Program-made: the position numbers and the translations under genes
The notes under the pieces: model-generated
What the model saw: only the letters and a program-made list of their open reading frames with translations
What the model was told of the DNA's origin: nothing
Database searches by the model: none
NCBI GenBank assembly: GCA_036172245.1
Contig: JAYWIR010000091.1
Location: forward strand, 186,001 to 250,000
DNA: 64,000 bases
Reading direction: 5' to 3'
From: Raillietiella orientalis
Lineage: Eukaryota
Shown here: positions 10,281 to 51,730 of the stretch, in pieces
Layout of the letters: every line of letters begins with the position of its first letter
How positions within the stretch are numbered: the stretch's first letter is position 1

Positions 10281-10294
10281 TCGAAAGCTTTACG

Positions 10295-14056: not shown

Positions 14057-14121
14057 TTTTTCTTCGCTCTCGTCTCCGTGCTTTCATCCGCTTCATCTTG
14101 GCGTCGTACATTTTGACGACG

Positions 14122-22900: not shown

Positions 22901-23283
22901 TATCGTGGCGGCATGGAGCGACGCCAACAACGAAGGAGTGGGTCCACAGGGGAAAGATGTCATCCCGTATGCCCAACGCTTCTTGCGGAGAGCTGCCGGA
23001 TGGCCCCAACTGGGGAATATGCAGACTGACCTCGAGGGCTTCGTTCGACGAATGGGCCCTCCCCACAGCGACCAGTGATCCCTTCCCTGCCCTCCAACTT
23101 CTTTTTGTTTGTTTCTTGTTATTTTTCTCTTTGTCTTATCCCCATCTGCCTTCCCTGTCGGAGAGTGCGACGCCGGGCTGCGTTCCGTTGTCCCGACAGG
23201 TCGCGTGTTTACGGCCGTGGTGGGGCCTCGTACCACGCATATAGAGTTTACAAATAAACGCCCCGGGCGTACCCGGGTGACAA

Positions 23284-23517
23284 CGCCGAATCCCCATTGC
23301 AGACGTTTCACAGGGAACTTTTTGCAGAACTCCCGGACCGAGTCCTTAAATAGATCCCAATACGCGAGTCTCTGGAGGCTGACGCCTCGCAGGAATTCGC
23401 GAAGATGGTCTTTCGCTCCTGACAGGCGCGTCCAGTCCCCTGTCATACGCCAATCATTGGATGGCGGTCCCTTGTCGCGAGGAGGCATTTCGAATAATAA
23501 CCGGAAATGGTCCGTCA
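23284..23517 (-). pseudogene. Short inverted family C ORF2 linker fragment (TDHFR to GFG), host of the C1 3' end
   Basis: Minus strand reads MPPRDKGPPSNDWR...VREFCKKFPVKRLQWGFG. Confidence 0.85.
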
Positions 23518-26299
23518 GCCGGGAACGTTCGTCCCCGTCTGCGGTACGGAATCTCGTGCGGTGTTTTTATTCCTCCCTTTACGCCAAAACACCACACGAA
23601 CAAGACGCCTCGCGACGAATGCTCATGAGTGGTACCGTGGGGATAGGGGAGGAGGAGAGAGAAAGCCTCGATGAGCCTTTCACGACAGGTGAAATTCTCG
23701 CCGTTAACAAAAGGCTCAAGAGGCGTAAGGCGCCAGGGGAGGACGGCTTGCCCGCAGAGTTCTTTCAGAGTTTCGCGGAAGGGCTGGCACCCCTGCTGCT
23801 TCAGCTGACAAGGCTGATCGGAGACGAAGGCCATGTTCCAGCCTCGTTTCGGTCAGCCAGAGTGAGGCTCCTTTCGAAAGGGGAAGACTTTAGAAATTTG
23901 AACGACTGGCGTCCGATCACGATTGTGAACACGGACGCCAAGTTGATTGCCGGGCTGTGGGCTTCGCGATTGGGGCAGGTGTCCAATTCCATAATTAGCC
24001 CGGAGCAGAGTTACGCTGTTGCCGGGCGAAGTATGGAGGACAACCTCTTTTTCGCGAGCACGTAGATGCACGCGCAGCGGAGTAATAAAGAAGGGAAAGG
24101 AAAAATTTTCAACCTTACTTAAGGGCTGCCAGTGGGACAGGGTAGAATCCCTCATGCGGGAAAGGGGGCCTTAGCGATCGCAGTCGACCTCCATAAGGCA
24201 TTCGACTGTGTTGACCAGGAACTCCTATTGGAGCTCCTGGTTCGCATGGGCTTCCCACCCTCCTTGATTACCTACCTGAGCTTTTGCTGGCGGAACGCGA
24301 TAATCTCAATTACTTTCAGTGGAAAAAAGGTGTTAGGCGTGCCAGTGCGGCGGGGCATAAGGCAGGGAGACAGCTTCAGCCCCCTGCTTTTTAGCACCTA
24401 CGCTGAGCTGGTGCTGAGAGCGTACAGGGTGACTTTGGCCCCCTTGCCGAGCTCCTGCCCCGGCACGCCAGCTGTAGCGGCGTATGCCGACGATCTTCTG
24501 CTCCTCTTACCTATTTCCACCCCGGCGAAGGCAGTCGGAGATTTCTTCGAACTGCTTAGCCGTGGGGCGGGATTACAGGTTAACAGGTCGAAGTCGTCAG
24601 GGTTGCCAGTTGGAACGACGTGGGCAGGGCAGCAGGACTGGGTCCGTCTTGGGATCCCCACATTGAGGTGCATCAAGTACCTCGGTGTGCCGTTAGAGGA
24701 CTTCTCCCTTGCGGAAGCGTCGTCCAGCTGCCTCCAAAAAGTCGAGACGGCGATCGGCCCGTTCCTGGAAGGCAAGTTTCACTTGCCGGAACGGGCCGCG
24801 GTTTGGAACGCCTTCGTGGCCCCCATTCTCCGCCCCTTGCTTTTTGTTTGCCCCGCCCCCGTGGAATCAAAAAAGCGGACGAAGGACCTCCTCCGCATAG
24901 CTCTTCGGGGCAAGGGGAGGCGCCGAGTCCCACTGAAGGACTTGTGCGCTCCGCGTCGGGACGGCGGTCTTGGCCTCCTGACACTGGAGCGCGTGGAGAA
25001 GCAGCTGCGGTGGCGAACCCTCGCCATCACAACGAAGATGTGGAGCACCCCTTAATGCACCTTGGCCCGCCTCCTGGCCAGCCGTGTGTCCCGGTGCGAT
25101 GGACTCGCGTCGTTTCTTCTGAGCCGTGGCCGGAAGATGCGAAGATGCGGCCTACTGCTCGGGCGCATGGCAACATTGGCCAAGGAGAACAGCTGGATGG
25201 TTTGCTGCCCCGCCAACTCCCCCGCCTGGCTGGAGGAGAATATTGGAACGTGGGCAGCAGTTAACCAGAGAAGCCACGAGACGTGGAATCGTCTCCCATG
25301 CAGCCCCTACGCCCGCTGCACGCTGCGGAATTTCCTGGAGAGTCCAGGAAGATGCGCGTGTGCAGAGACGACCTGCCTAGCTACGGCGCTCCTCTTCCTG
25401 AGAAGGGCACTTCACAGCAGCCGAACGCCAATGTGGCAAGTCTCCTGCTGCATCCAGGGACGCGAGAAGTTGATCAGCGTCTGGACAACAGGAAAACTGG
25501 CAGACGCCACGACACCGAGCGTCCAGCCGCGAGGTCTAAGAAGATGGGGCGAGCTGCTGGCCATCCCTATGGATGTGCTGAAGTGGCCTCCGTTTCTTCA
25601 GGAATCCAGGATGCTGCTCCTTAAGTGGAAAGACTCGGCGTTGCTGTTGTTGCATTGGGGGTTACCCTGTAATGCACGCCGCTCTCACTGGACTAGAGGA
25701 GTTGTGGATCCTGCTTGTGTCAGGTGCGGAGAAAGGTAATCGCTCTCCCACCTTATTGTGGACTGTGCTGCCCTTCGTCCCCTTTGGGAACGATTTGGGA
25801 CGATCCTCGGTCTTCCTACGGGCAGTTCCCCTACAGACGTTCTTCGGCCCCTCTTCGTGAAGGACGCCCTGCATCCAGTCGCAGCCCTTGCAGGCTTGTG
25901 CTGCGTCCGAAGCATCGTGGCGGCATGGAACGACACCAACAAGGAAGGAGTGGGTCAACCCGTGAGGGATGTCGTCCCATATGCCCAACGCTTCTCTTGG
26001 AGAGCTGCTGAATAACCCCAACTGGGGAATGCACAGATGGACCTCAAGGGCTTCCTTCAACGGATGGGCCCTCCTCTCAGCGAACAGTGATCCCTTCCCT
26101 GCCCCCCAACCTCATTTGTTTGCTTGCCTTCTTGTTTTCATTTTTGTTTTTCCCCATCCCCTTTCGCTGCCGGGGAGTGCCACGCCGGGCTGCGTCCCGG
26201 CGTCCCGGTAGGTCCCGTGGGTAAGGCCGTGAGCGGGGCCTGGTACCGCGATTGTAGAGTTTTTTATAAATAAACGCCCCGGGAGTACCCGGGTGGCAA
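23518..26299 (+). mobile_element. Family C copy 3, 5'-truncated (RT to 3' end)
   Basis: KAPGEDGLP, DLHKAFD, AYADD (~24480); colinear with ~20510-23283; terminus AATAAACGCCCCGGGAGTACCCGGGTG-GCAA. Confidence 0.92.
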
Positions 26300-29033
26300 C
26301 GCCGAATCCCCCGGGCAGACGTTGCACAGGGAACTGTTCGCAGAACTCCCGGACCGAGTCCTTAAATAGGACCCAATTTGCGAGACTCTAGAGGCTGACG
26401 CCTCGCAGGAATTCGCGTAGATGTTCTTTCGCTCCTGACAGGCGCGTCCAGTCCCCTGAAATACACCAATCCCTGGATGGGGGTCTCTTGTCGCGAGGGC
26501 GCATCTTGAATAATAACCGGGAATGTTCCGACAGCGCCGATCCAAGTGTCCCTCGTTTTCCGACCCGTGTGCACAGGTCTTCGTCGAGGAAGACGTGGTC
26601 CACGCTGCTGACCATCCCGCATATTTCTGTCAACAAGTTGCGCGCGCGCATGGCGGCGCACAACTCGTTGATCGCGTTACCCTGTGCTCCATGCTGATCT
26701 GAGAGCAGACGGTCGTTGAAATGCCTTGCTATCAGATGCGCCTTTCGCACGTCCGCGTCCACCATCCATTCGCGCTTCAAGGTTTCCAGAAAGCGTTGCG
26801 CTGCTGGTATCCCTGTTTACAGCTAGGAGCGTACACATTGGTGACGATGAGTTCGATTGAATCGAACCATCTGAGAATCAGTTGGCCGATCCGTCCGTCG
26901 TCCCCAAAGCGCACGCCCTTTACGGCCGCGTTAATGGCTGGCTTTAGAAAGAACGCGACCCCACAAGTGTTGCGGGCGCCGCATCGCCAGTACAACCGCC
27001 CTCTTGCGACCGTTTCGTTCTCCTGGGAGTCTTTTGCGGTGATCACGTGGATCTCCTGCAAAAGCACCAGGTCGAAATCTCGCAAGGTGGCGTCTGTATC
27101 TCGTCTGTTTCCGTCGTCGCGCAGCCCATTAACATTCCAACTGGCCGCGCGGATCCGACGGAGACATGCGAGTCCAGGTGTTATTCCTAAGAACCTGGCG
27201 GTGGTGCTCCCGCCACCTTTTGGGGCGGGTCGCTGGACGGGGTTGGCGTCTTGCTAACCAACTCCCCATCCTTCTTTCGTGCCGACGTCTCCGGCTGCCC
27301 GTGCGAAGGGGGTGTTGTTCGTACCTGTTGGCCCACATCCATTGGTGCGGGTGTTTCAGGTTCGGCGGTTTCAGAGGCCATTTCTGACCCCTGGTTACCC
27401 TCCTCCATTGGAGTCGCCTCCTCGTGGGCTTCCGCACGTGAGTGATGCTCGACTTGGGCTCCCACACTGCCATCCACTGGTTCTTCCACCAATGCATCCC
27501 CCTCGCGCGGAGGCGGAATGCACCTTCGGGGTTTCTGGGATTTTCGCCCCGCTTTCCTTGGTGGTGCTTCCGCAGAGAACGATGCACTTCCGGCCTCCCG
27601 GTCCGACTCACCTGCGGAAGCCTCTTTAGCCGCTGCATGCCTACGCAACCCCTTTCGCAAAAGTTTCTCGCGTTCGGCAAGCGTTGCCGCAAGCTCCTCG
27701 GCGGCCTTCTCGGAAGCTGAGTCCTTGGTTTCGGCGATTTGGTCGTCCGGCTGACCCTCTTCGCAAGCAGGGGTTGGGTTTTCGCGCGCATCCGTCGCGG
27801 CGGGAAAATCGATCGAAGCCGTATCGCCTCCGGTGGTGTCGGCGGGAACGTCAATGCGCTCCAGCGTAACCGTGCATTCTCGGAGAGTTTTTACACCCGA
27901 CACGGATTGATCTTTTGTTCCGGCCGCCGTCTTCTCTCCTTTCTTCGGTACATGCTTGTCTATTTTCTCTTTTTTGGCTTTGACTAGCTGCCAGCCCTGT
28001 TCTCCCTCTGCGGTTTCAAGAAGATTTTTCTCCGATGCCGCGCTTGGAGCTTGGGTTATTGGAAGCTTTTCTCGGCCAGTTTCACGGTTTTCCAATTTTT
28101 CGTTCCCCGCGCGTTTCCCTTGCGCCTTTTTGGCGGCCGAGGAAATTGGGGTGGGGCGTTTAGGGTACACGCAACGGACGTGTCCCTTCTCCCCGCACAA
28201 GTAGGATACGATGTTTGGACACCTCTTTCGGATGTGTCCGACCGCATCGCAGTAGCCGCTATACCGTGGCTTGCCCGCATATTAGAGGTCTACCGGTTCT
28301 CCCGCGACCTCAAGTTTGTGGAGTAGCTTCGCTTCGTTTTTTAGGGTTACGCGTGCCGCGGCGAGGCCCCCGAAGTGGCGTCCGTAGCCCTCAAAGATTG
28401 TGGGCTTCGGCCACAGCGCGTGTACGTCCCCGTACTTACTTAATTCTGCTTTTACGGCAGTGCGCGTCATGCGCTTGGATATTCCTGTCAAGTGGACCAC
28501 TACCGAGTGGTCCATTGACACCGGGAAGATCTTACGGCAGTCCATGATCAGCGGGGTATTTATAAGGCGATCGGCCAGGCTAATGGTCTTGCACACCAGC
28601 TCAACCCGCTGCGCCCCGCTGAGCACGCACAGACCTTCCAGATCTTCCTCAAGGACATTAGCATTTTGAAGCGCTCTGCTGAAAGAGCGCGCCAAGTTCC
28701 CTTTAAACAAAGGGCCTACCATGCATACAAGGGATGGCTCGTATTAAGAGGCCCGATAGGCGGCTTCCTCGGCCATGGCCTCCGCACTGGGGGCGACGAC
28801 CATTTCACTCCAAGTCTTCGCCGGCTGCGAAGACGTTTCAGGGACTATTGCCCACATAGCTGTAGGTCTTGTAGTAGGACTTGCCTTCCCCACAACTACA
28901 TCTATCGCGGTGTCCTCTGGCACGGCTGCCAACGGACACCGACGACCCACTCTTTACACCTGACTACACTGAAAACTCCGGCTGCTTCCCAGACAAGCGC
29001 TGGCGGAGCGACCAAAAAACACGTCCACTCACA
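26300..29033 (-). mobile_element. Family C copy C': 5' end, ORF1 and APE up to the GFG site
   Basis: 5' TGTGAGTGGACGTG; ORF1 PEDTA...WSEMVVAPSAEAMAE...; APE QEIH, NVYAP, VDH; ends LPGGFG. Confidence 0.9.
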
Positions 29034-29046
29034 CCAGGTTTCGGCG

Positions 29047-30379
29047 ATTCCACCCGGATACGCCGGGACGTTTATTGAGAAACATTTCAACGGTCAATAC
29101 AAAACGTGGTACAAGGCCCCACTGACGGCCACGCAATACCGGAACTGCCGGGACACCGGGACGCAGCCCGGTGTGGCTCTCCTCGGCAGTGGAGGGGGAT
29201 GAGGGAGAAAACAAAAATAAAATAAAAGAGAAAAAAAAAATACAAAAAAAAGTTTGGAGGGCCGGGAAGAAATCACAGAAGACTGCTGGGAGCGCCCATC
29301 CTTTGCAGGATGCCTACTAGTTCCATTTTCAGTTTTCCTAGATTCTGCCATCGGGTAGTTCTCTGCAGGAAGCGAGAAGCATACTCGATGACGTCCCTCA
29401 CGATGCAGCCTTCATCTTCGGCATCACTCCCGGCCGCCACAATACCACGAATGCAGCAAAGTGCTGCCAGGGCTGCGGCTGGACTGAGGGCGTCCCGCAC
29501 GAAGACATGACTGAAGACACATCCAACATTTCCACCATCCGGTATCCGAAGGGCTATTTTCAGACGATCCCAAAGAATCTGGACGGCAGGACATTCATCT
29601 AAGAGGTGGGGGAGCGACTTCCGCTCTCCACACCTGGCAAACGCAGAATTTACTCCTTCCCGCGTCCAGTGGAGGCGACCAGCGTTGCAGGGTAGACCCC
29701 AATGCAGCCACACAAGCGCCGATTCTTGCCACTTCAGGGGAAGAATCCTGGATCCAAGTAGAACCGGGGGCCACTTCAGGTCATCCCATCGAATCCCGAG
29801 CAGCTCGCCCCATCTCCTTAATCCACGCGGCTGGAGACTAGGGGTCGTTGCATCTGTCAACTCTCCCATGGTCCAGCCGCTCATCATCTTCTCTCTGCCT
29901 GCGATAGGCAGCAGACTTGCCACCTTGGCTTCCGGCTTTCGTGAAGCGCCCTTTGGAGGAAGGGCATTGCCGTAACAAGAAGTGTGCCTTCCGCCCATGT
30001 GCAACTCGGTGGAAATTCAAGAATTCCACGGAGAGTTCGGCGGGCTTAAAAGCCGACTCGCAGGCAGTTCATCCGTCCTTGCACCTCTGGTTCTGCTTGG
30101 CCCAGGTGCCAGCAGTCTCTTCCAGTCAAACGGAAAAGGTGGCAGGACCACAAACCATCCAGTTATTCTCCTTTGCCAGGGTTGCCATGCGGCCGAGCAG
30201 TAGACCGCATCTTCGAAGCTTCCGGCCAGGGCACAGAAGAAACGATGCGAGTCCTTCGCAACGGGACACACGCCGGGCCAGGAGGCGGGCCGCAATGCAC
30301 CAAGCGGTGCTCCACATCTGCGCTGCGATGGCGTGGGTCCGCCATAGCAGCTGGATTTCCACGCGCTCCAGCGTCAGGA
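29047..30379 (-). mobile_element. Family C copy 5, 3' part, head-to-tail with C'
   Basis: LTLERVE...HWGLPCN...ARCGERKSLPHLLDEC; terminus AATAAACGTCCCGGCGTATCCGGGTG-GAAT; closely similar to ~47775-49107. Confidence 0.9.
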
Positions 30380-31834
30380 TGCAGGCTTGCGCATTCTCGA
30401 CTTAAACAGCATCGAACTGCAAGTGCAGTTTTGCATGCTGCGGCTCTGTGCCAAGCTGTGGTTTACGCCGTTGTGCTTACCCGAACGCCTTATATAGAGG
30501 CGCTGCACGGGAAGAGAGAGATTGCTTTCGTTGCTACCCGAATTTCGGCACACCAGAATAGGGTTTGGCTTCCCGCTGAGGCAGCTGTCCTCACTGCTGG
30601 AAGCCCAAAGCTGGATCTCCTGCCGCCCCATGAACATTAATGCATGGCGGCAGGAATCTTTTTCATCGTGGGCAGCTTCCGAAGGAACGCGCCTGGAAGA
30701 TCTTCGACGCCTGCGACTTCTCTTCAGTCATCAAATGGACGAAGTCATGCAGGACAAGAAGTTGTCGCATCGTCTGGCCGCCACACCACTCGCCGCAGCG
30801 CTGTCTGCCCTCAGGGCAAGCAACGACGGTTGCCTACCGGCGGAATGGGAGTTCTCCTGCAAAATAGCGGGAGTCAGTAAGCTTCTTGGCATCTGGAGGA
30901 CAAAGGAGCTGGTGCAAGCCCTCACCCCTCGGAATCGGGCAAAGGGCCTGCTTCGGTGGAGCGAACATTTAAGTGTGCCCCCCGGAGAGATAGTGGTTCC
31001 CCTCGTTTGTTTGGACAGCTCCGTGTTCCCCCTTAAGTGGAAACAAGATGTGCTGCTCTTTTTACATTGTGCATTTCACTGTAATAGGCAGCGAAGCATC
31101 GTTTCCGCGGGAGCTGCTTTGCCAAACTGTTTAAGGTACGTAGAGATCGAGTCTTTTCCGCACCTTTTGCTGGACTGCGGTGACCTCCGGGAACTGTGGC
31201 GAAGGCTCACTTCGGCCATCATGCCACAAGGAGGCACTGCCATTGATGTGCTGCGGAGCTTCTTCAGCAGAAATGGACTTTTGGTTGGCGCGATTGTCGC
31301 AACCATGTGTTGCGTTCTCGCCATCGTGAAGGCCCGCTACACCCTGGAGTTGTCATCGCAGCGAAGGGAGGCTCACCTGCTTGCAGATCAATTCATGGAG
31401 AAGGCTTCAAGGTGGTCTCATCTTCGTGACAAGGTGAATGAGGACATCACCGGCATACATCGCCGGTTTACACACCTTTGAGAACGGCGTAATCCGGTGA
31501 TCCCTGCGACCTCTCGCCCACCCATACCCCGTCCCCGTTCGCTCGGTAAAATTTCCGGTGCCCATGCTTTTATCACCGTGTCTTCCAGAGCGATCCCAAA
31601 GACCGTTATCCCGTCCTCCTTATTCATTGTTTTTATTTTATTTTGGTTTCTTTGTGTTTTCCGCCCCCCCACACCGTTCAAGAAACTGTTACTCCGGCCT
31701 GCGTGCCAGCAATATTCTCTTCATTCTTGTTAAGTTGTCGGTTGGAAGTTTGGTTCCCAACTGGTTTATATTGTATAATTGCTTTTTTTGGTTATGTTAT
31801 ATGGAATAAACGCCCCGGCGTGACCAGGTGAGAA
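30377..31834 (+). mobile_element. Family I (B-related) 3' part
   Basis: ORF 30522..31481 GFPLRQL...LAATPLAAAL...NCLRYVEIESFPHLLLDC; terminus AATAAACGCCCCGGCGTGACCAGGTG-AGAA. Confidence 0.9.
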
Positions 31835-33850: not shown

Positions 33851-36003
33851 CGTAAAGCTTTCGACTGCGTCGAACAGGAGCTCCTTCTTTAGCTAATGGA
33901 ACGCTTGGGATTTCCGCCCGTCTTCCTGGGCTACCTGCGTTCTTGCTGGCGCTTCGCGTTCATCAATATTAATTTTAGCGGCCGGCACGTGTTCGACGTG
34001 CCGCTTCGTCGTGGCATCCGGCAGGGTGACAGCCTCAGGCCCCTGCTCTTCAGCATCTACTTTGAATTGGTGCTGAGAGCATACAGGGAGACTTTGGCAA
34101 CCCTGCCGAGCTCGTGTCCCGGCACGCCAGCCGTTTCGGCCTATGCCGACGATCTTGTGCTCCTGCTTCCCGGGTCCACCCCGGCATCGGCGCTCGAGGA
34201 TTTCTGCGTGTTGCTATACCGTGGGATAGGCCTCCAGGTGAACAGGACGAAGTAGTCGTTGCTTTTCACCGACTCGACGAGGGCCAGACGATCGGAATGG
34301 ATCCGCATGGGGATCCCCACGTGCAGGTGCATCAAGTACCTTGGCGTTCCGTTGGGGGACTTCTGCTCTGCAGAAGCCTGGTCCGACCGTCTACAAAAGG
34401 TGGAGCTGGCGATCGGCCCGTTCCGGGACGGCAAGTTCCACTTGCAGGAACAAGCCACGGTATGGAACGCTTTCGCGGCCCCTCTCCTTCGCCCCCTACT
34501 TTCTGTGTGCCCTACCCTTTATCGAATTAGGACACGAGCTAGGGGCCTTATACGGAAAGCCCTCTGGGGCAACCGTAAGCCTCGCGTCCGGCTCAAAGAC
34601 TTGTGCGCTTCACGCATGGACGGTGGACTTGGTCTCCTGACGTTGGAGCGCATGGAGCGACAGCTCCAATTTAGAAAACTTGCCCTTGTGTCAAAGTTTT
34701 GGACAGCACCCTGGTGTGCTCCAGCAAGACTCCTTGCTCACAGGGCAACCGGCTGCTTCGGATTGACTTCAATCCTGGTAGCCAACGAACGCAGGCTGAA
34801 CCATTGTGGTTATCAGCTGCGGGATTTGGTTGATCTGATGAGAGACAACCCTTGGATCTCCTGCATCCCAGCGGACTGGACTACCTGGCTTCAGGAATCC
34901 GTATCCGCATGGGCGAAGATCAATGGCACAAGCAATGAGGTCTTCTCCTAGCTCCGCAGAGGGAGGCACGCTGGTCAGCCACTCCAGGAGATCGTTTCCA
35001 TCCCACGGAAACTTCTGTAAGCTTCCTTCACCCCCCTTGCCCCTGTGCTGCCTTCCCTCAGGGAAGTTCGGGACAGCCACCAACAGGCATCGTGGGAAGT
35101 GTCCTGCCTAATCGGAGGCACTAAAAAATCACGGAAGGCGTGGACGCCGAGGGAACTAGAGGACGCTAGTACCCCGAGTGTCCCGCAGAACGGACTTTTA
35201 CGCTAAGGCGCGCTGCTCAGTACACCCCCGGAGGAGGTGAAGTGGCCCCCAGCGTCATGCGACAACGGCACCCTTCCCCTGCAGTGGCAGGAGACGGCGT
35301 TGCTTCTGCTTCACTGGGGACTTTTAAGCAGAGCACGCCTGTCTCTTCGGACATCAAGGAATGTGGATGCTAGTTGTGCAGAGTGCGGAAAAAGGGAGAG
35401 CTTCCCTTACTTGATTCTGGAGTGTGTTGCCCTCCACGAAATTTGGGAGACACTCTCGTCGATCCTCAACATTCCGGAGGGTCAACTGAAAAATCTATTC
35501 AGACGCCTTCTAACGCGAGACGGCTTGCCAGCCTCCGGGAGCGTAGCACTGCTTTGCTGCATACGCGGTATCCTGGAGAAGTGGACCGCGTCTAGGAGAG
35601 GAAGGACCAGCCGGAATGCCATCCACTGGGCAGCGATCTCCTTGGAGAAAGTGTGCCGTTGGCGCTGACTTCAAAATCATTTGCCAGCACTTGTTGGCAT
35701 CCGAAACCGGATGCAAAGGCCGCTTCACGGCGCACCGTGATCCCCCCCTCCCTCCCCCTTTCCAAAAAACTTTGACTTCAGGACGTTTTTCTTTTTTTGT
35801 TTTTGTTTTCTTCAATTTTTCCCGTCCCGGCGACAGTGAAAGACCTTATCGACCTCCGGGTCGGTAAGGACAAGTGCTACTGAACTTCTGAACTAAACCT
35901 CTGACGTCGTAAAAAAAAAAATCTTATCAACATATACTTTGTTACAAAATCCTGTAATTTCAAAATTTTAGCAATAAAAGCCTTGTCTTACCAGGGTGAA
36001 AAA
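33851..36003 (+). mobile_element. Family D copy 2: 3' half from RT KAFD to terminus
   Basis: RKAFDCVEQELL, GIRQGDSL, AYADDL, CAECGKRESFPYLILEC; terminus AATAAAAGCCTTGTCTTACCAGGGTG-AAAAA. Confidence 0.92.
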
Positions 36004-37867: not shown

Positions 37868-37875
37868 ATTGAAAT

Positions 37876-40800: not shown

Positions 40801-43780
40801 GGCCCTCGCCTTGTACTCTGCGAGACGCCCGACATCCGCGCGTCTCGAAAACGTGCGGGCCTGCAGAAAGTCTCTACTGTTGGCCACACCCTCTCCAAAA
40901 CCGCGTGGAAGCCGGTGCAAGGGGAATTGGCAGCAGAACTCGCGGACAGATCTTTTGAGATCGTCCCAGTGCGCAAGTTCTTGAATGGCAAAGCCTCGGA
41001 GGTATCCACGTAGATGCTCCGCAGCCACCGGTTGGCTAAGCCAATCCGTCTGCATCCTTCAGTTTTGCAACGGAGGTACCCTGCCTGGCGGAAGGATCTC
41101 AAACTCCAACCTGTGGTGGTCAGAAAGCCTAGTCAACAATCTGCCTCTCCTCCCCACACGCGAATGCAGGTTTTCATCGAGGAAAACGTGATCGAGCGAT
41201 CTTTCCATTCCAGGTTCGCTGACCATCAAGTTGGCGGCGTGCACGGACGCGCACATCTTGATGGGCAGCGCGCGCTCCCTCGGGCGGCTCCAATCGTCGG
41301 AGAGCAGTCGGACGTTGAAGTCCCCAGCGACGAGGTGCCCCACTTGGAAACCGGAGTTGTTGAGCCAGTGGCTCTGCACCTCACCAAAGAAGGCTACTCT
41401 TTCTTGGAATTAGCGAGAGCCACTCGGCGCGTAGACGTTCGTAACGACGAGATCGATGGACTCGGACCACTTGATGACAAGCTGGCCTTTCCGTCCGTCG
41501 TCATCGAAACGAATACTACGCACCGCTTCCGCCATTTTTCCTCTTACGAGGAAGGCGAAGCCGCACGTGTGTGCGCCGTCGCACCGCCAATGTAGCGTTC
41601 CGCCTGCGCGCTCCTCGATTTCGACTCTCTGCTCATCGGAGATTACGTGAATCTCCTGCAGGAGCGCGCGGTCGAAGGGGTGCAGGGCGTTGGCTACTAA
41701 TCGCCTCTTCTCATCGTTCTGTAGTCCGTTCACGTTCCAACACGTTACGGACAGACGACGAGAAGACGGGATTCCCCGCATTACTGCTGGGAAGGTGGCG
41801 GCTTTTTGCTCGCTTTTTCCGGCGAGCAGACGGCGAGCAGCACGACTGGCTGGAGGGCACGGTCGCCACCGTCCTCTGTCGTGCTGCAAGCATGTAATGC
41901 CTCCACGCCAGGCTTAACCCCGTCATGTTTCGTGGAGACTTCGCGTGGCCTCGCGGCTAGCGTTGCCTAGCTGCCTACTTTTGATCGGCGCGCACACGCT
42001 TTCGAACGAGTTGTCCTCGTCTCGGTGATCGGAACGGCATCCATTTCGGAGTCCGACCGGCGCATGTTCGATCGGGTTTCCGCCTTCCACGAAGTAGTGA
42101 CAGGTTCTGCTGGATTGACAGCTGTCCTGTTGTCTTTTTCCGTCTCCAGAGCATCGCTTTTGGTGACGGCTGCTTTCCCGGCGAGCGCGTTTTCAGCGTG
42201 CTCACGCGCAGTTGCACGAGGGACCTTTGCTGAAGTCTTCTTTACTTCATTACGTTTCCTCACTTCGCGTGATGCCGTAAATGGAGATTGTGCTCCATTG
42301 CCATCTTTCAAGCCATCCGTGTCTTTAAACGGGAGCAGTTTCGATGGCTCCGACACGCTCGTCATGGACGCTGCCTTCGGAAGGGCTTTCAATCCCTTCG
42401 TTGGCATGACATCCGCGCTAGTCGAGAGCTTGCTCTCCGACTGCGACGGCGTGAGATTTTTTTCCGCTTTCGCGGAGTTGGATCGCGACGGGGATTTTTT
42501 TTTGCCGACTTTCAAAGTCGACACGGCACAACCCTTCTTACTCGATTTGGGCTTCTCAGCCACTGCAGGAGGTGAAGGAATGGATCTGACTGTACTGGAA
42601 GTGTCCTTACCGCCGTTTTCCATTGACGTCTTCGCCGGTTGTTCGAACTCCGAAAGAGCCGGGCGTGCTTGGGAAGGACAGCTATTGCGCCTAGGGGGAC
42701 TTACCATTGCCCCGGATTCACCGCACCCTTTCTTTTGCGGCTCCCCTGCCGCGAGAGGGGGGCGCAGGGCTTCGCGTGCGAGGTTTCCTGCTGCTTTGGG
42801 GCGACATTCCGCTTCGCGTTTTTACCGAATTTCTGCCGTGGGGTCTCCAGGTTTTTCGCAGATTTTTTCTTTTTATCCGCGCTTTGTTTTTTAAAATGTA
42901 GCTCCGCGGCTGCTTTTTTTCGCAAAAGATCCGGGCAATTTTTCAATTGGTGCCCGGATAGTTTGCAATAACGGCATTTTCCAGAGGGGCATTTATCCAA
43001 ACAATGCCCCTCCTTCCCGCATTGCTCGCACGTTCTTACTTTGCCCAGGAACCACAGGTGAACAACCGTGTCTTTCACCTGTAGTTTGGTGGGCAGCAGA
43101 CGGCGGTCAGGCATTGTAAGCCGGACTCCAGCGACTCCGCTGTGTATGGACGGGAAGTCCTTGAGGTTCGTTCGCACCAACCACAGCGCATGGACCGTGG
43201 CGAATTTCGCTAACGCGTTCAGAATATCAATATCGGAGACTTCCGACTCGAAGTCGGAAATCTCCGCCACAAATGAGTCGTCCATGGCGGTCGGGAAGAC
43301 CTTCTGTCCACGGATCGACAACGGGGTGCGCAGCAAGCGTTGCACAAGTGCAGCGTCTTTGCAACGCACCTTAAAATAGCCCATGTCTTTTACGGGAATA
43401 ATGGCGAGAAGGTCCTCCTCTTGCACGCCAACACGGGTCACTTCATCGTTAACTGATTTCCGTCGCGCGCAGAAAGAAAACCACTCACCTTATATCGGAG
43501 AGCAGGTCTATAGCTTTGGGCTACGTATGCCCGCAACTCCGACTCGTCAAGTGGTGTCCCTTTGACGGCTGCTGTGGCAGCAACGTCAGCAAAACTCCTC
43601 TCCATTGGCGAGAAAGACGAAGTGGAGTCGGCCGTAGGTTCCGCGATTGCAGATCCGGATGCTGTTCCTCCAACTTCAGTAGCTTCAAGTTGGGTCGACA
43701 TCGTCGTAAAAATGTACGACGCCAAGATGTAGCGGATGAAAGCACGGAGACGAGAGCGAAGAAAAACACGTCCGCACTCG
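37876..43780 (-). mobile_element. Family B copy 2, full length (~5.9 kb), flanked by ATTTCAAT on both sides
   Basis: ATTGAAAT at 43781-43788 and 37868-37875; ORF1 43701-41781, ORF2 41781-38189. Confidence 0.96.
38926..41055 (-). pseudogene. Longest open RT reading frame in the window (709 aa, part of B2 ORF2)
   Basis: KAPGEDGLP, NWRPITLVNSD, QGDSLSP, AYADD, KYLGV; APE upstream broken by stops, frameshift downstream. Confidence 0.95.
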
Positions 43781-46164
43781 ATTGAAATCTCCCGCTATCA
43801 GGTGATTTTTTCGCACATTGGTATCTGCCAGCCAGTCGCGCTTCAGGGTTTCCAGCAGCCTGGTGCGGTCGCGGTAACCCTGTTTGCCGCTGGGGCCATA
43901 CACGTTTGTGACGATTAGGTCGTTCGAGTCGGACCAGCTGAGAATCAGCTGACCGATCCGACCGTCGTCATCAAACCGCACGCCCTTTACGGCAGCGTCG
44001 ATGGCCGGCTTCACGAAAAACGCGACCCCGCAGGTGTTGCGGGGGCGGCATCGCCAATACAGCCGACCCCCCGCGAACTTCTCGATCTCCTAGGCGTCTG
44101 CCGCGGTGATCACGTGGATCTCCTGCAGCAGCGCCAGGTCGAGCTGACGCAGGGTGTCGGCCGTATGTCGCCTGTTGCCGTCGTCGCGCATCCCGTTGAC
44201 GTTCCAACAGGCCGCGCGAATCCGACGGCGACTGGCGAGCCCAGGTGTTAGTCCTGGGAAAACGGCGATGCGGCGTCCGCCACCTGCTGGGGCGGGACAC
44301 TAGGTGGAGGGGGAGGGGAGACAGGTACTGAAGGCACCTGTTCCTCCTCCTGCATCGGTGCCGGCGCGTCGGGCGGATCACCTGCAGGTGGAGTCGCGCC
44401 TACCTGTTCGCCTTCCTCCATGGGTTCGGGCTGCTCAGGTTTCGCGACTGCAGGGAGGACTTAACCCCCCTGCTCTCTCTCCTCCATGGGGGTGGCCGAC
44501 TCGACGGCTTCCGGGCGTGGGTATTGCCCCTCCGGGATTCCCACGCTGCCGCTTCCTTCCGGTTTCTCCTCCTCGCTGGTGGAGGGGAGGCGCCTCCTGG
44601 GTTTCTGGGACTTGCGTCCCGACTTCCTGGGGGGTGCCTCCGAGGAGGATGATCTGCTTCCGGCCCCCAGGTCGCACTCACCTGCGGGGGCCTTCTTTGT
44701 CGGAGCCGACCTGCGTACGCCCTTGCGCGACGGGGTTTCGAGCTCGGCGAGCGTTGCTGCGAGCTCCTCCGCCGCTTTGTCGAAGGCCGCGTCTTCGCCA
44801 GCGGCGACCGTTGCCGCGGGCTGCCCCGCGACTTTATCGAGCGCGGCGTCCTGGCTGTCGGCGCGCTAGTCTCGCGTCTCACCCTCTAAACGTAGATTGG
44901 GCACGTCCACGCGAGTATTCATCCCGTCTGCATCAGCTGTTCCGTGAACATTGCCGCGGGCGGACTCGGCAGGAACGGCTAAGCGTTCCAGTGCCACCGA
45001 GCATTCGTAGAGCTGCTTTTTTTTGAAAGCGGCGCAACTTTTTTCTTGTTGCCGGCAGTTTTCTTCTCCGACATTTCTTCTGGCATTAATTTCTTTTTTG
45101 TTTCTTTTTTGTCCTGAACCAGCTGCCAACCCTCCTCCATTTCCGCGTTCACATGAGCTATTTGCTCCGACGTCTGTACGGGAGGAAGGGAGGCTGGCAG
45201 TTGGGAACGGCCATTTTCGCTAGGTGGTCTTTCTACCAGCTTTCCACGTTTTCCCTGCGCCTTTTTGGCAGCAGGGGGCACCGGGGTGGGGCGCTTGGGG
45301 CTCACGCGTGAACGTGACCCTTTTTGCCGCATTTGACACACAATGTTAGGGTACCTTTCTCGTAGATGCCCTACTGCATTGCAGTAGCCACAAAATTGGC
45401 GTTTCCCCACGTACCAGAGGTCCACCGCTTCTTGGCAGACCTCCAGCTTGTGGGGAAGCGCACCACTCTCTTTTACTGTGATACGCGCCGCAGCTTGACC
45501 TCCGAAAAGGCTATTGTAGCCTTGGAAAATCGTGGACTTCGGCCACAACGCGTGCACTTCTCCGTGCTTTTGTAGCTGTTTTCGAACCTCTGACCTTGTC
45601 ATACGACTGGAGATCCCAGTGAGATGGACCACCACCGAGCGGTCCATCGTTATCGGCAAGATCTTCCGACCATCAACGATCAGCGGGTCGGTGATCAGAT
45701 GTCGGGCCAAGGTGATATCCTTGCATACCACCTTGACCCGCTGCCCGCCGCTGAGGACGCAGAGGCCGTCGACATCTTTTTCAAAAATATTGGCGTTCTG
45801 CAGCGCCTTCGTAAAGGCTCGTGCAGTTCGCCCATCGAAAAGGTTGCCTACCTTGTAGACGAGCGAGGGATTATACCCCGCTTTCTTGTAGGCTTCCATC
45901 TCGGCCATGGCTTTCACGCTAGGCGCGGCCACCATGGCGCTCCATGACCTCGGCGTCGCCGGGGACGATTCCGGGGCGGATGCCCCTGATCCAGTAGGCT
46001 GTGGGGACGAACAAGCCTCCATCACGCCTACATCCATCGCGGTGTCCTCTGGCAACGCTGCCATCGGACATTGACGATGTGCACGCACAAATCACTCAAT
46101 AAGAAAAAACACTCGCTTTGCCACGCAGGCGGAGCGCAGGAAAAGCACGTCCGCTCTCCACAGC
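43781..46164 (-). mobile_element. Family C copy 2: 5' end, ORF1 (46064-44248) and APE up to GDFN
   Basis: 5' CTGTGGAGAGCGGACGTG; MAALPEDTAMDVG...CGYCNAVGH; APE WNVNG, QEIH, NVYGP, LIAGDFN. Confidence 0.92.
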
Positions 46165-49107
46165 GGGGATTCGGCGAAGGGGCTCGTAACAAACGCGCGT
46201 ATTTGCACGTGCGTCTTCACGAGAGGAACCCCAATGTCCGTCGCCTGGCCGAATACCGCGGCGGAGCCGAGCGACAAGCCTGGCAATCCGAGTCAGACAG
46301 CATGCTGGATGACCTGGGCCGGGAACGTTCGTCCCCGTCTGCGGTACGGAGTCTCGTGCGTTGTTTTTATTCCTCCCTTTACGCCAAAACACCACCCGAA
46401 CAAGACGCCTCGCGGCGATTGCTCATGAGTGGTTCCGTGGCGATAGGGGACGAGGAAAGAGAAAGCCTCAAAGAACCTTTCACGACCGGTGAAATTCTCG
46501 GGGGTATCAAAAGACTCAAGAGCCGTAAAGTGCCAGGGGAGGACGGCTTGCCTGCGGAGTTCTTTCAGAGTTTCGCGGAAGAGCTGGCCCCCCTGGTGCT
46601 CGAGTTGACAAGGCGAATCCGAGACGAAGGCGATGTTCCCGCCTCGTTTCGGTCAGCCAGAGTGAGGCTCCTCCCGAAGGGAGGAGTCCCAAGGAAACTT
46701 TGCAACTGGCGTCCGATCACGATTGTGAACACGGACGCCAAGTTGATTGCCGGGCTGTGGGCGTCGCGATTGGGGCATGTGTCCAATTCCATAATTAGCC
46801 GGGAGCAGACTTACGCTGTTCCCGGGCGAAGTATGGAGGACAACCTCTTCTTCGCGAGCACATGGATGCACGCGCAGCGGAGCAATAAAGAAGGGACAGG
46901 GAAAATTTGCAACCCTACTTTGGAGCCGCCAGTGGGACAGGGTAGGGACCCTCATGCGGGAAAGGGGGCCTTAGCGATCGCAGTCGACCTCCATAAGGCA
47001 TTCGACTGTCTTGACCAGCTACTCCTCTTGGAGCTCCTGGGTAGCATGGGCTTCCCACCCTCCTTGATTACCTACCTGCGCTCTTGCTTGCGGAACGCGA
47101 TAATCTCAATTACTTTCAGTGGACAAAAGGTGTATGGCGTGCCGGTGCTGCGGGGCATAAGGCAGGGCGACAGCCTCAGCCCCCTGCTTTTTAGCAAATG
47201 CGCTGATTTGGTGTTAAAAGCGTACTGGGTGACTTTGGCCCCCTTGCCGAGCTCGTGCCCCGGCACGCCAGCTGTAGCGGCGTATGCCAACGATCTTCTG
47301 CTCCTCTTACCTATGTGCACCCCGGCGAAGGCGGTCGGAGATTTCTTCGACCTGCTTAGCCGTGGGGCCGGATAACAGGTTAACAGGGCGAAGTCTTCAG
47401 TGTTGAAAGTTGGAGCGACGTGGGTAGGGCAGCAGGAATGGGTCCGTCTAGGGATCCCCACAGTGAGGTGCATCAAGTACCTCGATGTGGCGTTGGGGGA
47501 CTTCTCCCCTGGGGAAGCGTGGTCCAGCTGCCTCCAAAAAGTCGAGACGGCGATCGGCCGTTCCTGGAAGGCAAGTTTCACTTGCCAGAACGGGCCGCGG
47601 TTTGGAACGCCTTCGCGCCCCCATCCTCCGCCCCTTGCTTTTTGTTTCCCCTGCCCCCGTGGAATCAAGAAAGCGGACGAAGAACCTCCTCCGCATAGCT
47701 CTTTGGGGCAAGGGGAGGCCCCGAGTCCATTTGAAGGACTTGTGCGCTCCGCGTCGGGACGGCGGTCTTGGCCTCCTGACGCTGGAGTGCGTGGAGAAGC
47801 AGGTGCGGTGGCGAACCCTCGACATCGCAGCGAAGATGTGGAGCACCGCTTGGTGCATTCCGGCCCGCCTCCTGGCCAGGAATGTGTCCCGCTGCGAAGG
47901 GCTCGCATCGTTTCTTCTGTGCCCTGACCGGAAGATTCGAAGATGCGGTCTATTGCTCGGCCGCATGGCAACCCTGGCAAAGGATAACGACTGGAAGGTA
48001 TATGGCCCTGCCAACTCCTCCGCTTGGTTGGAAGAGTCTGCTGGCACCTGAGCAAAGCACAACAAGAGGTGCGAAGTCCGTTTAAACTGCCTGCGAGTCG
48101 GCTTTTACGCCCGCCGCACTCTCCGTGAAATTCTTGAATTTCCACCGAGTTGCACGTGGGCGTAAGGCACACCCCTTGTTAGGGCGATGCCCTTCCTTCA
48201 AAGGGCGCTTCACGAAAGCCGGAAGTCAAGGTGGCGAGTCTGCTGCCGTATCGCAGGGAGAGAGAAGATGATGAGCGTCTGGACCATGGGAGAGTTGACA
48301 GATGCAACGACCCCTAGTCTCCAGCCGCGTGCATTAAGAAGATGGGGCGAGCTGCTCGGCATTCGATTGGATGACCTGAAGTGGCCCCCGGTTCTACTTG
48401 GATCCAGGATTCTTCCCCTGAAGTGGCAAGAATCGGCGCTTCTGTGGCTGCATTGGGGTCTACCCTGCAACGCGCGCCGCTTCCACTGGACGCGGGGAAG
48501 AGTAAATCCTGCGTGTGCCAGGTGTGGGGAGCGGGAGTCGCTCCCCCACCTCTAAGTTGAATGCCCTGCCGTCCAGATTCTTTGGGATCGTCTGAAAACG
48601 GCCCTCCGGATACCGGATGGTGGCAATGTTGGATGTGTCTTCAGTCTTGTCTTCGTGCGGGACGCCCTCAGTCCAGCCGCAGCCCTGGCAGCACTATGCT
48701 GCATTCGTGGTATCGTGGCGGCCTGGAGTGATGCCGAAGATGAAGAGTGCATCGTGAGGGACGTCATCGAGTATGCTTCTCGCTTCCTGCAGAGAGCTAC
48801 CCGATGGCTCCATCTAGGAAAGCTGAAAAGGGAACTAGAAGGCATCCTGCAAAGGATGGGCGCTCCTAGCAGTTTTCTGTGATCCCTTCCCGGCCCTCCA
48901 AATTTTTTTTTGTGGTTTGTTTTTCTCCTTTATTTTATTTTTGTTTTTTCCCCCATCCCCCTCCACTGTCGAGGAGAGCCACACCGGGCTGCGTCCCGGT
49001 GTCCCGGCAGTTCCGGTATTGCGTGGCCGTCAGTGGGGCCTTGTACCACGTTCTGTATTGACCGTTGAAATGTTTTTAATAAACGTCCCGGCGTAACCGG
49101 GTGGCAA
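46165..49107 (+). mobile_element. Family C copy 4: from the GFG site through RT to 3' terminus
   Basis: GFGEGARN...DLHKAFD...AYAND...CARCGERESLPHL; terminus AATAAACGTCCCGGCGTAACCGGGTG-GCAA. Confidence 0.92.
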
Positions 49108-51715
49108 CGCCGAAACCTGGAGGAAGTTGATGGAGGGGAAACTGGTCACAGAACTCTCGGACTGAGCGTTTTATTTTGTCCCAGTCAGCGAGAGTCTGCA
49201 GTTCGCAACTACGCAGGAATGCGCGCAGATGTTGGCGCGCTCCTGCGAGTCGCAACCAGTCCCCCGGCAGGCGCCACGCTTCGGAGGGTGGACCTCTGTC
49301 GCGCGGATGAATGTTGATCACTAGCCGAGGGTGATCGGACAGCTCCGACGCAATTGCTCCTCGAGTCCCCACCCGCGTACACAAGTGGTTATCGAAGAAC
49401 ACGTGGTCGATTCTGCTTCTCGCCCCGGCTTCATCGGCCAACAAGTTGCGTGTGTGCATAGCCGCACACAACTCGTTGACCAATTGTGCTCGTATGTCGG
49501 GCGCTTCCGACAGCAGGCGGACGTTGAAGTCTCCCGCTATCAGATGCGCCCGCCGCACGCCTGCTTCGGCCAGCCAGTCTCGCCGCAGGGTTTCGAAGAA
49601 CGCAGTGCATTCTGCGCGCCGGTGGCTGGTGCAGGGCGCGTACAGGTTCGTGACTACGAGGTCGATCGATTCGGGCCACTTAAGGACTAGTTGTCCGACT
49701 CGACCTTCCTCGTCGAACTGTGCACTGCGCACCGCATTGGCGACGGCCGGCTTCAGCAGGAAAGCCACTCCGCGGAAGTGGTCTCCTCAACCACGCCAAA
49801 GTAGCCTCCCTCGTGTGAGCCTCTCGATTTCCTGGACGTCCTCTGCTCTGAGGGCATGCACCTCTTGAAGAAGTGCCAGATCGAAAGGTCGCAGTGTGTC
49901 GGCCACGCTACGCCTCTTGCTCTCGCTACGCAGCCCGTTGACATTTCAACAGGCTATACGCAGCTGCCGGCAAGAGGCGATTCCACGCATCTTACTAGTG
50001 ATGGTGGTGGCGTGTGTATTGCCGCCTCCTGTTCGGGAGGCGGCTGGTCGTTGTCCATCTGCGGTGGTGGCGTTTCGGCAACGACCGGAACGTCTGCAGC
50101 CGGACTGAGGTCGATAGGAAGGACCGACCGGATGCTGTCGATGGAGGGATCCCGCGACCTCGCGGACATCGCCTCCTCGCTATCCGAGCGCATCTCCTCC
50201 TCCTCAGCCTGAGGGGGAGCGACGCGCATAGGGTTGCGCGACTTCCGGCCCGCCTTCCTCTTCGGAAGGGCGACGGTGGGAGGGTTTCTAGCTTCCGCCT
50301 TGGACCCGGAAGTTTCCGGGCCCTTAACTTCCGCCGGACGTCTGACGGCCTTCTTTGCAGCCTTAGGCGACTGCATTAAGGTGGCCGCGAGTTCCTCCGC
50401 CGCCTTCGCGAAGTTTTTCTCGTCGCTGCTGCTCGCGTGTTTGTCGCAGGATTGCTGCGGCGGTTCGGCGGCGTTCGCGACGGTTGCGGGAGTCGCGTTC
50501 GCCGATCGACGCTCGATCGACGGAACGCGCTCGATTGTAACGCGGCATTCCTTTATGGACTCGCGCGGCGAAATTTTTGGTTTGCCGACCGCGGGTTTTT
50601 TGGGAACGCTCGCGTTCTGATTTGTATTACTATTATTTTATTTGTAGAGTTTTTGTTTTTTTTGTGTTTCCTTTGTTTTTTTTTTCGACACGACTTTCCT
50701 GTTTTCCTCGTCGGCAGTTGGCTCAGAAGTCTCCTTTTGAGGCTCCTGCTCCTTGTGCACGACTTCTTCTGAGGTCGGCTGTTGGTCGCTCGTTCTTTGG
50801 TTTACTGCCTTCTTCCCCTGATTTGTCGAAGGGGCTGAAGACGTTTTCGCGGCGTTTTTCGGGCACACAGCACTAGTGTGGCCCTTCGCGCAGGAGGTTG
50901 GGCATATGGCATCCGGGCATCTCTTTTGAAGATGCCCGAATGTGTTGCACAGCCCACAGTATTTTTTCCTCCTTACGTACCAGAGGTCGACGAGGTCGTC
51001 GTTGACTTCAAGCTTGTGAGGAAGTTCTTTATTTTCGCGGAGAGTTACGCGTGCGTCCACTCGCCCACTGAATGCGCCTCGATAAGTGAAGGCGTTGGGC
51101 TTTGACCACATCGCGTATATCTCCGCGAATTTGTTGATTTCAGTGCGGATGGCTTCATCGGTCATCCGCACCGTTGTACCCCTGAGGTGGATCACCATAG
51201 AGTGATCCACCGTGTGTGGGAGGAGATTCCGCCCTTCGAACGGAACGGGCGTGCAGAGCAATTTGTGTGTGAGCGCTGCATCTTTGCAGATCAGCTCCGC
51301 GAACTGCACGCCGCTCCGAATCGAGAAGCAAAGAATCTCCTCGTCAGAGATTTCCATCCTACGGATGGCGTTTCCAAATTTCCGCGTTGTAAGCGGTGAA
51401 TAAAGATTTCCTACCTTGTAAAGGAGGGCTGGGTTGTAGCCCTCCTTTATGTAGGCCTGCACTTTGGCGGCCACGTCCGGCGGAGCCGCCGCGGCCACCT
51501 TGTTCCACGCCCTCGCCGGGATGGCGGGGGCTGATTTTCTGGTGAAGCATGACCCTACCTCCATAGGTTGGGGAGACGTGGGCCTCACGTTTCCCGTCGC
51601 AGGTACTGCGGCGTCTTTAGGCATTTCTGCCTTCCAACGGCCGCACTTCCAATCCACGCAACAACCTCTCTTGGTTCCGCTCACGGGAGCTGACCAAAAA
51701 CGCGTGCGGCACCGG
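49108..51715 (-). mobile_element. Family G: ORF1 (51624-49992) and APE up to the GFG site
   Basis: CGLCNTFGHLQKRC; APE NLYAP, GDFNVRLL, SRIDH, LSDH; ends LPPGFG; 5' end degenerate and approximate. Confidence 0.88.
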
Positions 51716-51730
51716 CGCAGGTTTGCCGCA

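Follow-up and report, generated by a model that had tools for sequence, protein, structure and literature searches.

The locus

This report concerns family C, a lineage of long interspersed nuclear elements (LINEs) found in a 64,000-nucleotide stretch of the genome of Raillietiella orientalis (GenBank assembly GCA_036172245.1, contig JAYWIR010000091.1, positions 186,001 to 250,000 of the forward strand), and the coding motif in other LINEs at which its copies end. The whole stretch is called the window, and all counts below refer to this single 64-kb window rather than to a genome-wide comparison. Positions 1-56040 form a dense nest of non-long-terminal-repeat retrotransposon fragments on both strands, with a GC content of 0.53-0.63 (mostly 0.55-0.60). 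From 56043 to the end, a satellite of about 275-278 bp with a GC content near 0.40 lies beside this GC-rich cluster. According to a domain search, the open reading frames (ORFs) of the window encode RVT_1 and Exo_endo_phos domains. LINEs of all families present share a 3'-terminal pattern, AATAAACGNCCCGG-N4-6-CCGGGTGNNAA, which is matched 10 times against 0.73 expected, and their 5' ends carry a motif around GAG(N)GGACGTGYTTTT.

Insertion junctions of family C

A C-type 3' untranslated region (UTR) is present in four copies, designated C1, C2, C3 and C5, and the 3' ends of all four abut the sequence CGCCGAAWCC. A sequence-only reading of the same DNA had proposed these junctions, and direct inspection of the letters bore it out: the 3' ends at 23283 and 26299 run into CGCCGAATCCCC, and those at 49107 (+) and 29047 (-) run into CGCCGAAACCTGG. 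On the element side, C1 ends in ...GGGTGACAA (23283/23284, +), C2 and C3 each end in ...GGGTGGCAA (26299/26300 and 49107/49108, both +), and C5, read in its own orientation, ends in ...GGGTGGAAT (29047/29046, -). The same site is met at two full-length 5' ends. That of C' follows CGCCGAAACCTGG and begins TGTGAGTGGACGTG (29034/29033, -), and that of the C-lineage element X follows CGCCGAATCCCC and begins GCTGTGGAGAGCGGACGTG (46165/46164, -); as had been claimed for the 5' end at 46164, the adjoining site reads GGGGATTCGGCG in the plus direction (46165-46176). The tandem arrangement of C5 and C' was likewise read as proposed, with a 13-bp spacer (29034-29046, CCAGGTTTCGGCG in forward reading) separating the 3' end of C5 from the full-length 5' end of C'. 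This spacer is the shared target copy in a head-to-tail tandem. Two of the three full-length 5' ends of the C lineage therefore lie on the site (C' and X, not Y). The 3' ends share one target nucleotide (..AA/CGCCGAAWCC), and the 5' ends are located 12-13 bp farther along.

Exact copies of CGCCGAAWCC occur six times in the window against 0.47 expected, a number reached in none of 100 shuffled sequences. Five of the six are element junctions, and the sixth (27727-27736) lies away from any junction. Translation of the flanks reveals that the sequence is the antisense of G-F-G codons that follow the apurinic/apyrimidinic endonuclease-like (APE) domain of the host LINEs, whose translated ends read ...RLQWGFG (H1), ...RLPGGFG (H2, which is C') and ...QLPPGFG (H3). 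The translation of C3 begins GFGEGARNKRAYL, and its residue 39 aligns with residue 386 of human LINE-1 ORF2p, which places the GFG site between the endonuclease and reverse transcriptase (RT) domains. The residues after GFG fall on a conserved 'GE(K)xxKxF' stretch of distant L1-type proteins in the alignment. The earlier assignment of the target to a GFG motif in the endonuclease-RT linker is upheld by both the flank translation and the ORF2p alignment.

From two tandem spacers and one 5' junction, a target-site duplication (TSD) of 12-13 bp is inferred; C2 adds to this basis if its inverted segment is accepted. The copies concerned are the C5/C' spacer, the X 5' junction, and C2 with H1 as its inverted 5' part. 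No such duplication was seen at the 5' truncation of C5 (30382/30383).

Occupied and empty sites

A translated search with the site-spanning segment of C1 identified nine linker sites that carry the G-F-G position; a further homologous LINE fragment (5183-4863, -), the tenth, stops short of the site and was excluded. Occupied sites read GGATTCGGCG in H1, H2 and C3, and GGTTTCGGCG in H3 and the C5/C' spacer. Empty sites read GGATTCAACA in C1, GGTTTTGGAG in the LINE G and its relative G', GGTTTTCGGA in the copy at 3-755, and GAATTTGGTG in the copy at 55592. The C1 site is taken as empty because GGATTCAACA is uninterrupted at 20355-20364, where G-F-G has become G-F-N, just as the sequence-only reading had it.

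Among exact linker sites (H2, H3, C3 and the C5/C' spacer), four of four are occupied, compared to none of four independent variants (Fisher p=0.029); these variants represent five copies, of which G and G' share one variant. When the 10-mer at 27727 outside the linker context is counted, the comparison becomes 4/5 versus 0/4 (p=0.048). Both counts are low, and it was through their occupants that the occupied sites came to light. Within the window, the proposal that occupancy follows site sequence is supported, in line with the sequence dependence suggested earlier. C copies do serve as hosts (C' and C3), and the antisense orientation holds. H3 belongs to a separate lineage and is not the element called G here (14035-19941), whose own linker site, GGTTTTGGAG, is empty. 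Coordinates of the elements and sites are collected in Table 1. C1 keeps a single reading frame from 19917 to 23075 with a few stops, and X is itself cut at its own GDFN motif by G'.

Table 1. Family C elements, their hosts, target sites and family G insertions in the window
Feature	Position	Strand	Remarks
Y: 5' UTR, ORF1, endonuclease to GDFN motif	11735..14034	+	5' end like X and C'; 5' part of a C-lineage element that continues as C1, split by unrelated LINE G
G	14035..19941	+	inserted in Y/C1
Variant linker site GGTTTTGGAG in G	16916..16925	+	empty; G-F-G protein kept by other codons
C1: GDFN motif to 3' end	19942..23283	+	3' UTR ends in hairpin, then GACAA
C1 linker site, variant GGATTCAACA (G-F-N)	20355..20364	+	uninterrupted, empty
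CGCCGAATCCCC at C1 3' end	23284..23295	+	proposed upstream copy of 12-bp C2 TSD
H1: 235-bp antisense endonuclease-linker segment	23284..23519	-	ends ...QWGFG; 88% identical to H2
C2: 5'-truncated mosaic C copy	23518..26299	+	
CGCCGAATCCCC at C2 3' end	26300..26311	+	target in host C'; downstream TSD copy
C' (H2): host with full-length 5' end, ORF1, APE endonuclease	26300..29033	-	cut right after ...LPGGFG
GGTTTCGGCG outside linker context	27727..27736	+	within C' ORF1 region, opposite strand; unoccupied
13-bp spacer CGCCGAAACCTGG (minus reading)	29034..29046	-	C5 3' end to C' 5' end
C5: 5'-truncated C copy	29047..30382	-	91.6% identical to C3, differences even over codon positions
X: C-lineage 5' part, full-length 5' end	43788..46164	-	antisense at C3 GFG site
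GGGGATTCGGCG: own GFG site of C3	46165..46176	+	occupied by X 5' end
C3: GFG site to 3' end	46165..49107	+	host for X, insert in H3
CGCCGAAACCTGG at C3 3' end	49108..49120	+	target in host H3
H3: host LINE of different lineage	49108..51730	-	cut after ...LPPGFG; 5' end in T-family element
G'	43787..37868	-	inserted in X
Variant linker site GGTTTTGGAG in G'	40893..40902	-	empty
G'': further G copy	37867..36002	-	tandem with G'
G-type 3' end	near 758 (about 758-788)	-	before ATTTCAAC
Variant linker site GGTTTTCGGA (G-F-R), LINE 3-755	335..344	-	empty
Variant linker site GAATTTGGTG (E-F-G), C-like fragment 55592-56040	55676..55685	+	empty

Independence of the insertions

The recurrence of CGCCGAAWCC would be uninformative on target choice if one or two ancestral junctions between C and a host had been copied repeatedly, through tandem and segmental duplications, within a recombining repeat array. 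What invites this explanation is a self-alignment in which 20506-23519 matches 23518-26535 at 85% identity, with a period of about 3015 bp and running across the junctions J1/J2. The flanks H1 and H2 also differ by codon position (11/79, 5/78 and 12/78) with no significant bias (p=0.18), and this pair taken alone would fit duplication. Similarly, the differences between C3 and C5 are codon-neutral, and a 13-bp flank is common to both.

The comparison of C1 and C2 points the other way. These copies differ at 108/856, 87/857 and 183/856 of codon positions 1, 2 and 3 (12.6, 10.2 and 21.4%) and at 44/208 positions (21%) of the UTR. The third-position excess is present both in the 3' kilobase beside the junction (11.1/11.4/24.0%, p=2.6e-5) and in the 5' 1.2 kb (16/12/27%, p=3e-7), whereas two neutral controls are flat (C3/C5, 6.0/6.0/7.5%, p=0.71; G/G', about 6.2/4.5/6.4%, summed over four frames). 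The divergence of C1 and C2 thus bears the marks of purifying selection, which argues that they diverged partly as active lineages and arrived by separate retrotranspositions. They are also more divergent than their own flanks: H1 and H2 differ at 28 of 235 positions, which is below the rate in the C1/C2 UTR (p=0.0098) and at third positions (p=0.0006) and equal to that at positions 1 and 2 (p=0.80). Furthermore, C2 reads as a mosaic of C3-like and C1-like parts. Its first 1.2 kb is nearer to C3 (about 87-96% identical, around 90%) than to C1 (75-87%), and over its last 1 kb identity is about 82% with C1 versus 60-78% with C3. A simple 3-kb tandem duplication of C1+H1 into C2+H2 was rejected in view of the codon bias, the mosaic structure of C2 and the divergence of flank versus element.

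The hosts provide a second line of evidence. H2 and H3 differ by 29/22/51% at codon positions 1, 2 and 3 (p=5e-7), a third-position excess that again bears the marks of purifying selection, their ORF1 and 5' regions are only about 40-55% identical and therefore essentially unalignable, and their 5' ends lie in differing contexts. H2 and H3 are separate lineages, and the C insertions within them are therefore separate events. In addition, the partner at the site varies, being a host body twice, the C' 5' end once and the X 5' end once, and at the analogous junctions of family G the hosts have diverged further than the inserts. The possibility that the sequence-only reading had named as refuting its view, descent of all junctions from one duplicated ancestor, fails on the C1/C2 and H2/H3 codon tests and the flat controls, and multiplication of ancestral junctions is considered unlikely. 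Additional events, with junctions of a different type, are represented by X at the C3 site and by C' behind C5. Overall, the count comes to 5-6 insertions at 3-4 host sites, namely the C' site (C1, C2), the H3 site (C3), the C5/C' spacer and the C3 site (X).

The antisense segment beside C2

The segment H1 (23284-23519) had been taken for a host flank but is better read as part of the C2 insert. H1 spans only 235 bp, starts exactly on the GFG site and runs antisense through endonuclease-linker sequence until it meets the 5' truncation of C2 head-to-head, in a clean join that shares 2 nt of microhomology. In direct orientation, C2 starts about 150 bp downstream of the GFG site, and about 150 bp are missing between H1 and C2. 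The same 12-mer flanks H1 and C2 together (23284-23295 and 26300-26311), and the base that follows it differs (A versus C). H1 is probably a 5' inversion of C2 that arose by twin priming on its own GFG site, judging from this arrangement. When H1 is read in this way, C2 gains a 12-bp duplication on both sides, with C1 in tandem upstream. It is also possible that H1 is a truncated host copy joined by illegitimate recombination.

Under twin priming, the free end left by the second nick, ...CGCCGAATCCCC-3', would be perfectly complementary to GGGGAUUCGGCG in the incoming C RNA. Where the GFG site of this RNA is intact, the second primer could anneal to it, and twin priming would yield the inverted 235-bp segment. 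Human L1 5' inversions arise by twin priming and resemble H1 and C2 in combining an inverted 5' segment with a 5'-truncated direct segment, microhomology and a small internal deletion. Unlike in human L1 inversions, the second primer of C2 would be fully paired, across 12 nt, with the target copy that the element itself carries, and the start of the inversion would therefore be expected at a fixed position. Both the twin-priming reading and this expectation come from one case.

A proposed mechanism and its rivals

Family C is probably an L1-like, APE-type LINE lineage that inserts with sequence specificity at GG(A/T)TTCGGCG^A in related LINEs, including members of its own family. Its endonuclease would nick the coding strand of the host right after GGCG, and the freed 3'-OH would prime reverse transcription of the C RNA from its end, immediately after the terminal hairpin and 2-3 A residues. 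Because priming would start from a nick in the coding strand, the new copy would come to lie antisense to its host, the orientation observed at the junctions. The other strand would be cut 12-13 bp away, duplicating CGCCGAAWCC(NN). Since this duplication restores the site, later copies could land beside earlier ones, and head-to-tail pairs are found in C1-C2 and C5-C'. Copies with a changed site would be spared, including C1 (GFN), G (other codons) and the GFR and EFG copies. RNA-guided targeting, in which the 3' end of the RNA would pair with the primer, was rejected because no complementarity was seen, unless transcripts extend into the flank.

The junctions might instead be products of recombination or template switching at a short conserved motif, made by RT jumping between LINE RNAs or by microhomology-mediated repair in a LINE-dense array, with no insertion directed by an endonuclease. 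The mosaic structure of C2 and several odd joins (T/Y at 11734-11735, T/H3 at 51731-51730, and H1/C2 with its 2-nt microhomology) are of the kind that such events can leave. However, the C side of the site is always an exact 3' or full-length 5' terminus and never an internal point, the C 3' end (..GGCAA) shares no microhomology with the site, and the 12-13-bp offset of 3' versus 5' junctions is the signature of staggered nicks. This origin of the junctions is very unlikely.

What directs C might also be a chromatin compartment, namely a LINE island near the centromere, and not a sequence. Insertions would in that case share a site through a weak nicking preference combined with the survival of copies in dead LINEs. 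The GC-rich cluster does abut the AT-richer satellite of about 275-278 bp (GC near 0.40), and Zepp and ZeppL clusters are known at putative centromeres, according to the portions of the sources available (PMC8226300, PMC3446292). Yet a weak preference would not put four of four 3' ends on the same nucleotide, nor would it leave all five variant linker copies empty, and targeting of a compartment instead of a sequence seems highly improbable.

Besides the H1/H2 comparison, a variety of points weigh against site-specific insertion by C. The specificity of its endonuclease is wholly inferred, and the evidence comprises 5-6 events in one window. There, no C element has both ends in undisturbed host sequence, and every copy seen is degenerate, with stops or frameshifts. 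The 5' end of Y (11735) abuts the unrelated LINE T and not the GFG site. The exact 10-mer at 27727 is empty, which implies either that 10 bp are insufficient or that this site was simply not struck. A single insertion may have been duplicated to give C3 and C5, which count as one event or two. Gene conversion among copies could mimic part of the codon-bias signal. Finally, the terminal hairpin is not more stable than shuffled sequence (z -1.7 to +0.4), and what speaks for a role of this 3' hairpin is only its conserved position.

Other families in the array

Family G shows a parallel form of site preference. G and G' lie in sense orientation at GGAGATTTCAAT, which encodes G-D-F-N in the endonuclease, and both are flanked on each side by ATTTCAAT, an 8-bp duplication. 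The two inserts are 5.7% diverged, compared to 14% (endonuclease part) to 32% (ORF1 part) for their hosts Y and X (p=4e-18). Because the inserts are less diverged than the hosts, G and G' are independent hits at the same site, and a segmental duplication was rejected on the values of 5.7% and 14%. GDFN sites that read GACTTCAA or CATTTCAA, with GAC in place of GAT, are empty (5183, 16500, 26720, 41319, 49528).

Further observations concern other LINEs of the window. In family T, TCGAAAGCTTTACGT separates a T-type 3' end from a T 5' end (10250-10320, +) and recurs before another T 5' end (33839-33880, -), and T looks like another site-specific family with tandem insertion. The full-length 5' ends of Y and H3 (11734/11735 and 51731/51730) are joined, in sense, to internal points of T that are 125 bp apart in T coordinates; these joins are possible template-switch chimeras or products of recombination between similar copies. 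Additional LINE 3' ends with the same hairpin are present at 31805-31860 (+), 54439-54500 (+) and 5400-5463 (-). They end in GAGAA or AACAA, have the flanks ATCTCCTGCGC... and ACAACGACGC..., and possibly represent further families with their own sites. In all LINE families of the window, AATAAA is found about 25 nt before the 3' end and a CCCGG/CCGGG hairpin of 5-6 bp is found 6 nt before it; only 2-4 terminal A residues are present, without a poly(A) tail, and the final 4-5 bases are family-specific.

The satellite (56041-64000) is made of three monomer blocks, one of which is inverted relative to the first two, and its array begins directly after a C-like LINE fragment that is truncated at 56040. 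The 56040/56041 position looks like a boundary between LINE island and satellite of the centromeric or pericentromeric type.

A broader and more tentative reading, which we hold to be rather less than even in its chances, is that these families form a network of sister LINE lineages, each specific for different conserved codons in the genes of the others and in its own. C would enter at G-F-G in antisense, G at G-D-F-N in sense with an 8-bp duplication, and T and others at further sites. Such mutual parasites might build a self-contained LINE island beside the satellite. Targets could escape by synonymous or conservative changes, such as GGC to GGA (G), GFG to GFN (C1) and GAT to GAC (GDFN), in what would amount to an arms race among retrotransposons, and the self-complementarity of target and RNA would force 5' inversions in C.

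Protein domains and database relatives

The APE endonuclease domain PF03372 is found in C' (26780-27253, E 1e-7) and in H3 (49079-49786), and RVT_1 is found in C1, C2 and C3. The RT region of C can be classed as L1-like because C3 residues 39-352 match residues 386-678 of human LINE-1 ORF2p with E ~1e-36, versus ~1e-9 for R2. A zf-CCHC match in the ORF1 of C', a zinc knuckle of the plant-L1/Tx1 type, is weak (E 0.0063; 17 bits, under the cut-off of 20.8). Among long database proteins, the best are L1-type with zf-RVT and are 29-31% identical. The 257-aa segment that spans the site had no match among 1324 candidates of 141-450 aa and two matches in 1.84 billion representative proteins. The better of the two, P0036 (619 aa), is 63% identical to C3 and is uninformative on the site because it starts 46 residues after GFG. 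A search of Atlas protein clusters returned generic RT clusters only.

A metagenome scan for the junction pattern CCGGGTGNNAWCGCCGAAWCC returned 78 loci, none of which has BLASTN similarity to the window; a hairpin-like upstream arm at one of the 78 was judged to be chance. Contigs of public run X1 (0.09 of sampled words) were compared with positions 19900-30400 at 80% likeness. Of the 400 records matched, 247 are less than 90% alike and most are about 300 bp, and the contigs belong to diverged relatives; none was at a C junction among the 6 of 280 loose ends and 8 of 422 pieces listed. One X1 contig runs C1-like in sense to 20284 and then via TTGAA into an antisense C-like 3' terminal hairpin (29052). 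The join would place an antisense insertion of a related element about 70 bp upstream of the GFG site in the genome of a relative, as seen in a single contig with a 25-letter side.

In the endonucleases of the window, the spacing from GDFN to (S/R)IDH is about 40 residues (19944-20100 and homologues). This spacing seems shorter than in the human L1 endonuclease. The short spacing suggests that a beta-hairpin loop, which has been linked to target choice in the portion of the source available (PMC1950540), may be short or absent.

Implications

Site-specific LINEs are known for ribosomal DNA, telomeres, small RNA genes, microsatellites and one DNA transposon. As read here, family C consists of APE LINEs that are site-specific and whose target is of a new class. 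If this is true, it would provide a nucleotide-level mechanism for nested, self-targeting LINE islands; for Zepp/ZeppL and Cnl1, targets are undefined in the accessible parts of the respective papers. Transposons of this type would confine themselves to a harmless niche while disabling competitors and siblings, and they could possibly seed repeat blocks adjacent to centromeres. They would also offer new APE endonucleases with a specificity of about 10-13 bp, which are of interest to the design of tools for targeted DNA insertion. The altered sites of empty copies make escape of one transposable element from another directly testable.

Comparison with known systems

R1, R2, TRAS and SART, which insert in ribosomal DNA and telomeric repeats, are characterized by precise 3' junctions, target duplications of fixed short length, head-to-tail tandems where the site has been regenerated and a multicopy 'safe' target, and C appears to resemble site-specific LINEs of the R1/TRAS type in its behavior. 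These elements target multicopy genes or repeats of the host, whereas C targets retrotransposons, and R2 differs further by its use of a restriction-like endonuclease; C matches R2 weakly. The specificity of the R1Bm endonuclease is addressed in the sections available of two papers (PMC1950540, PMC1919474).

Nested LINE clusters offer another comparison. Like the C cluster, Zepp (Coccomyxa/Chlorella) and ZeppL (Chlamydomonas) are GC-rich L1-type LINEs found only in nested clusters, and no defined target sequence is given for them in the parts of the reports at hand. In contrast, the site, strand and offset of C are defined to the nucleotide. Zepp ends in a poly(A) tail, unlike C copies, which end in a hairpin plus 2-3 A residues. 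Cnl1 of Cryptococcus is reported to form subtelomeric LINE arrays by preferential insertion into its own copies, and its 'precise sequence specificity' is called 'undefined' in the excerpts of the paper that were available (PMC12810828). C differs from Cnl1, as far as those excerpts describe it, in being L1-like and having a defined site.

A search of full-text literature recovered no description of a LINE that targets LINE coding motifs; most subscription journals lie outside its coverage, and a prior description is possible. In its behavior, C seems closest to Tx1L of Xenopus laevis, an APE LINE whose endonuclease is highly specific and whose insertions lie in the DNA transposon Tx1D, to judge from the available text of the source (PMC1950540). 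Both are L1-superfamily APE LINEs with a single landing site inside another transposable element. Unlike Tx1L, C has as its target the coding sequence of related LINEs or of its own family, entered in antisense, and several sister families of its array use other sites in ORF2 or ORF1.

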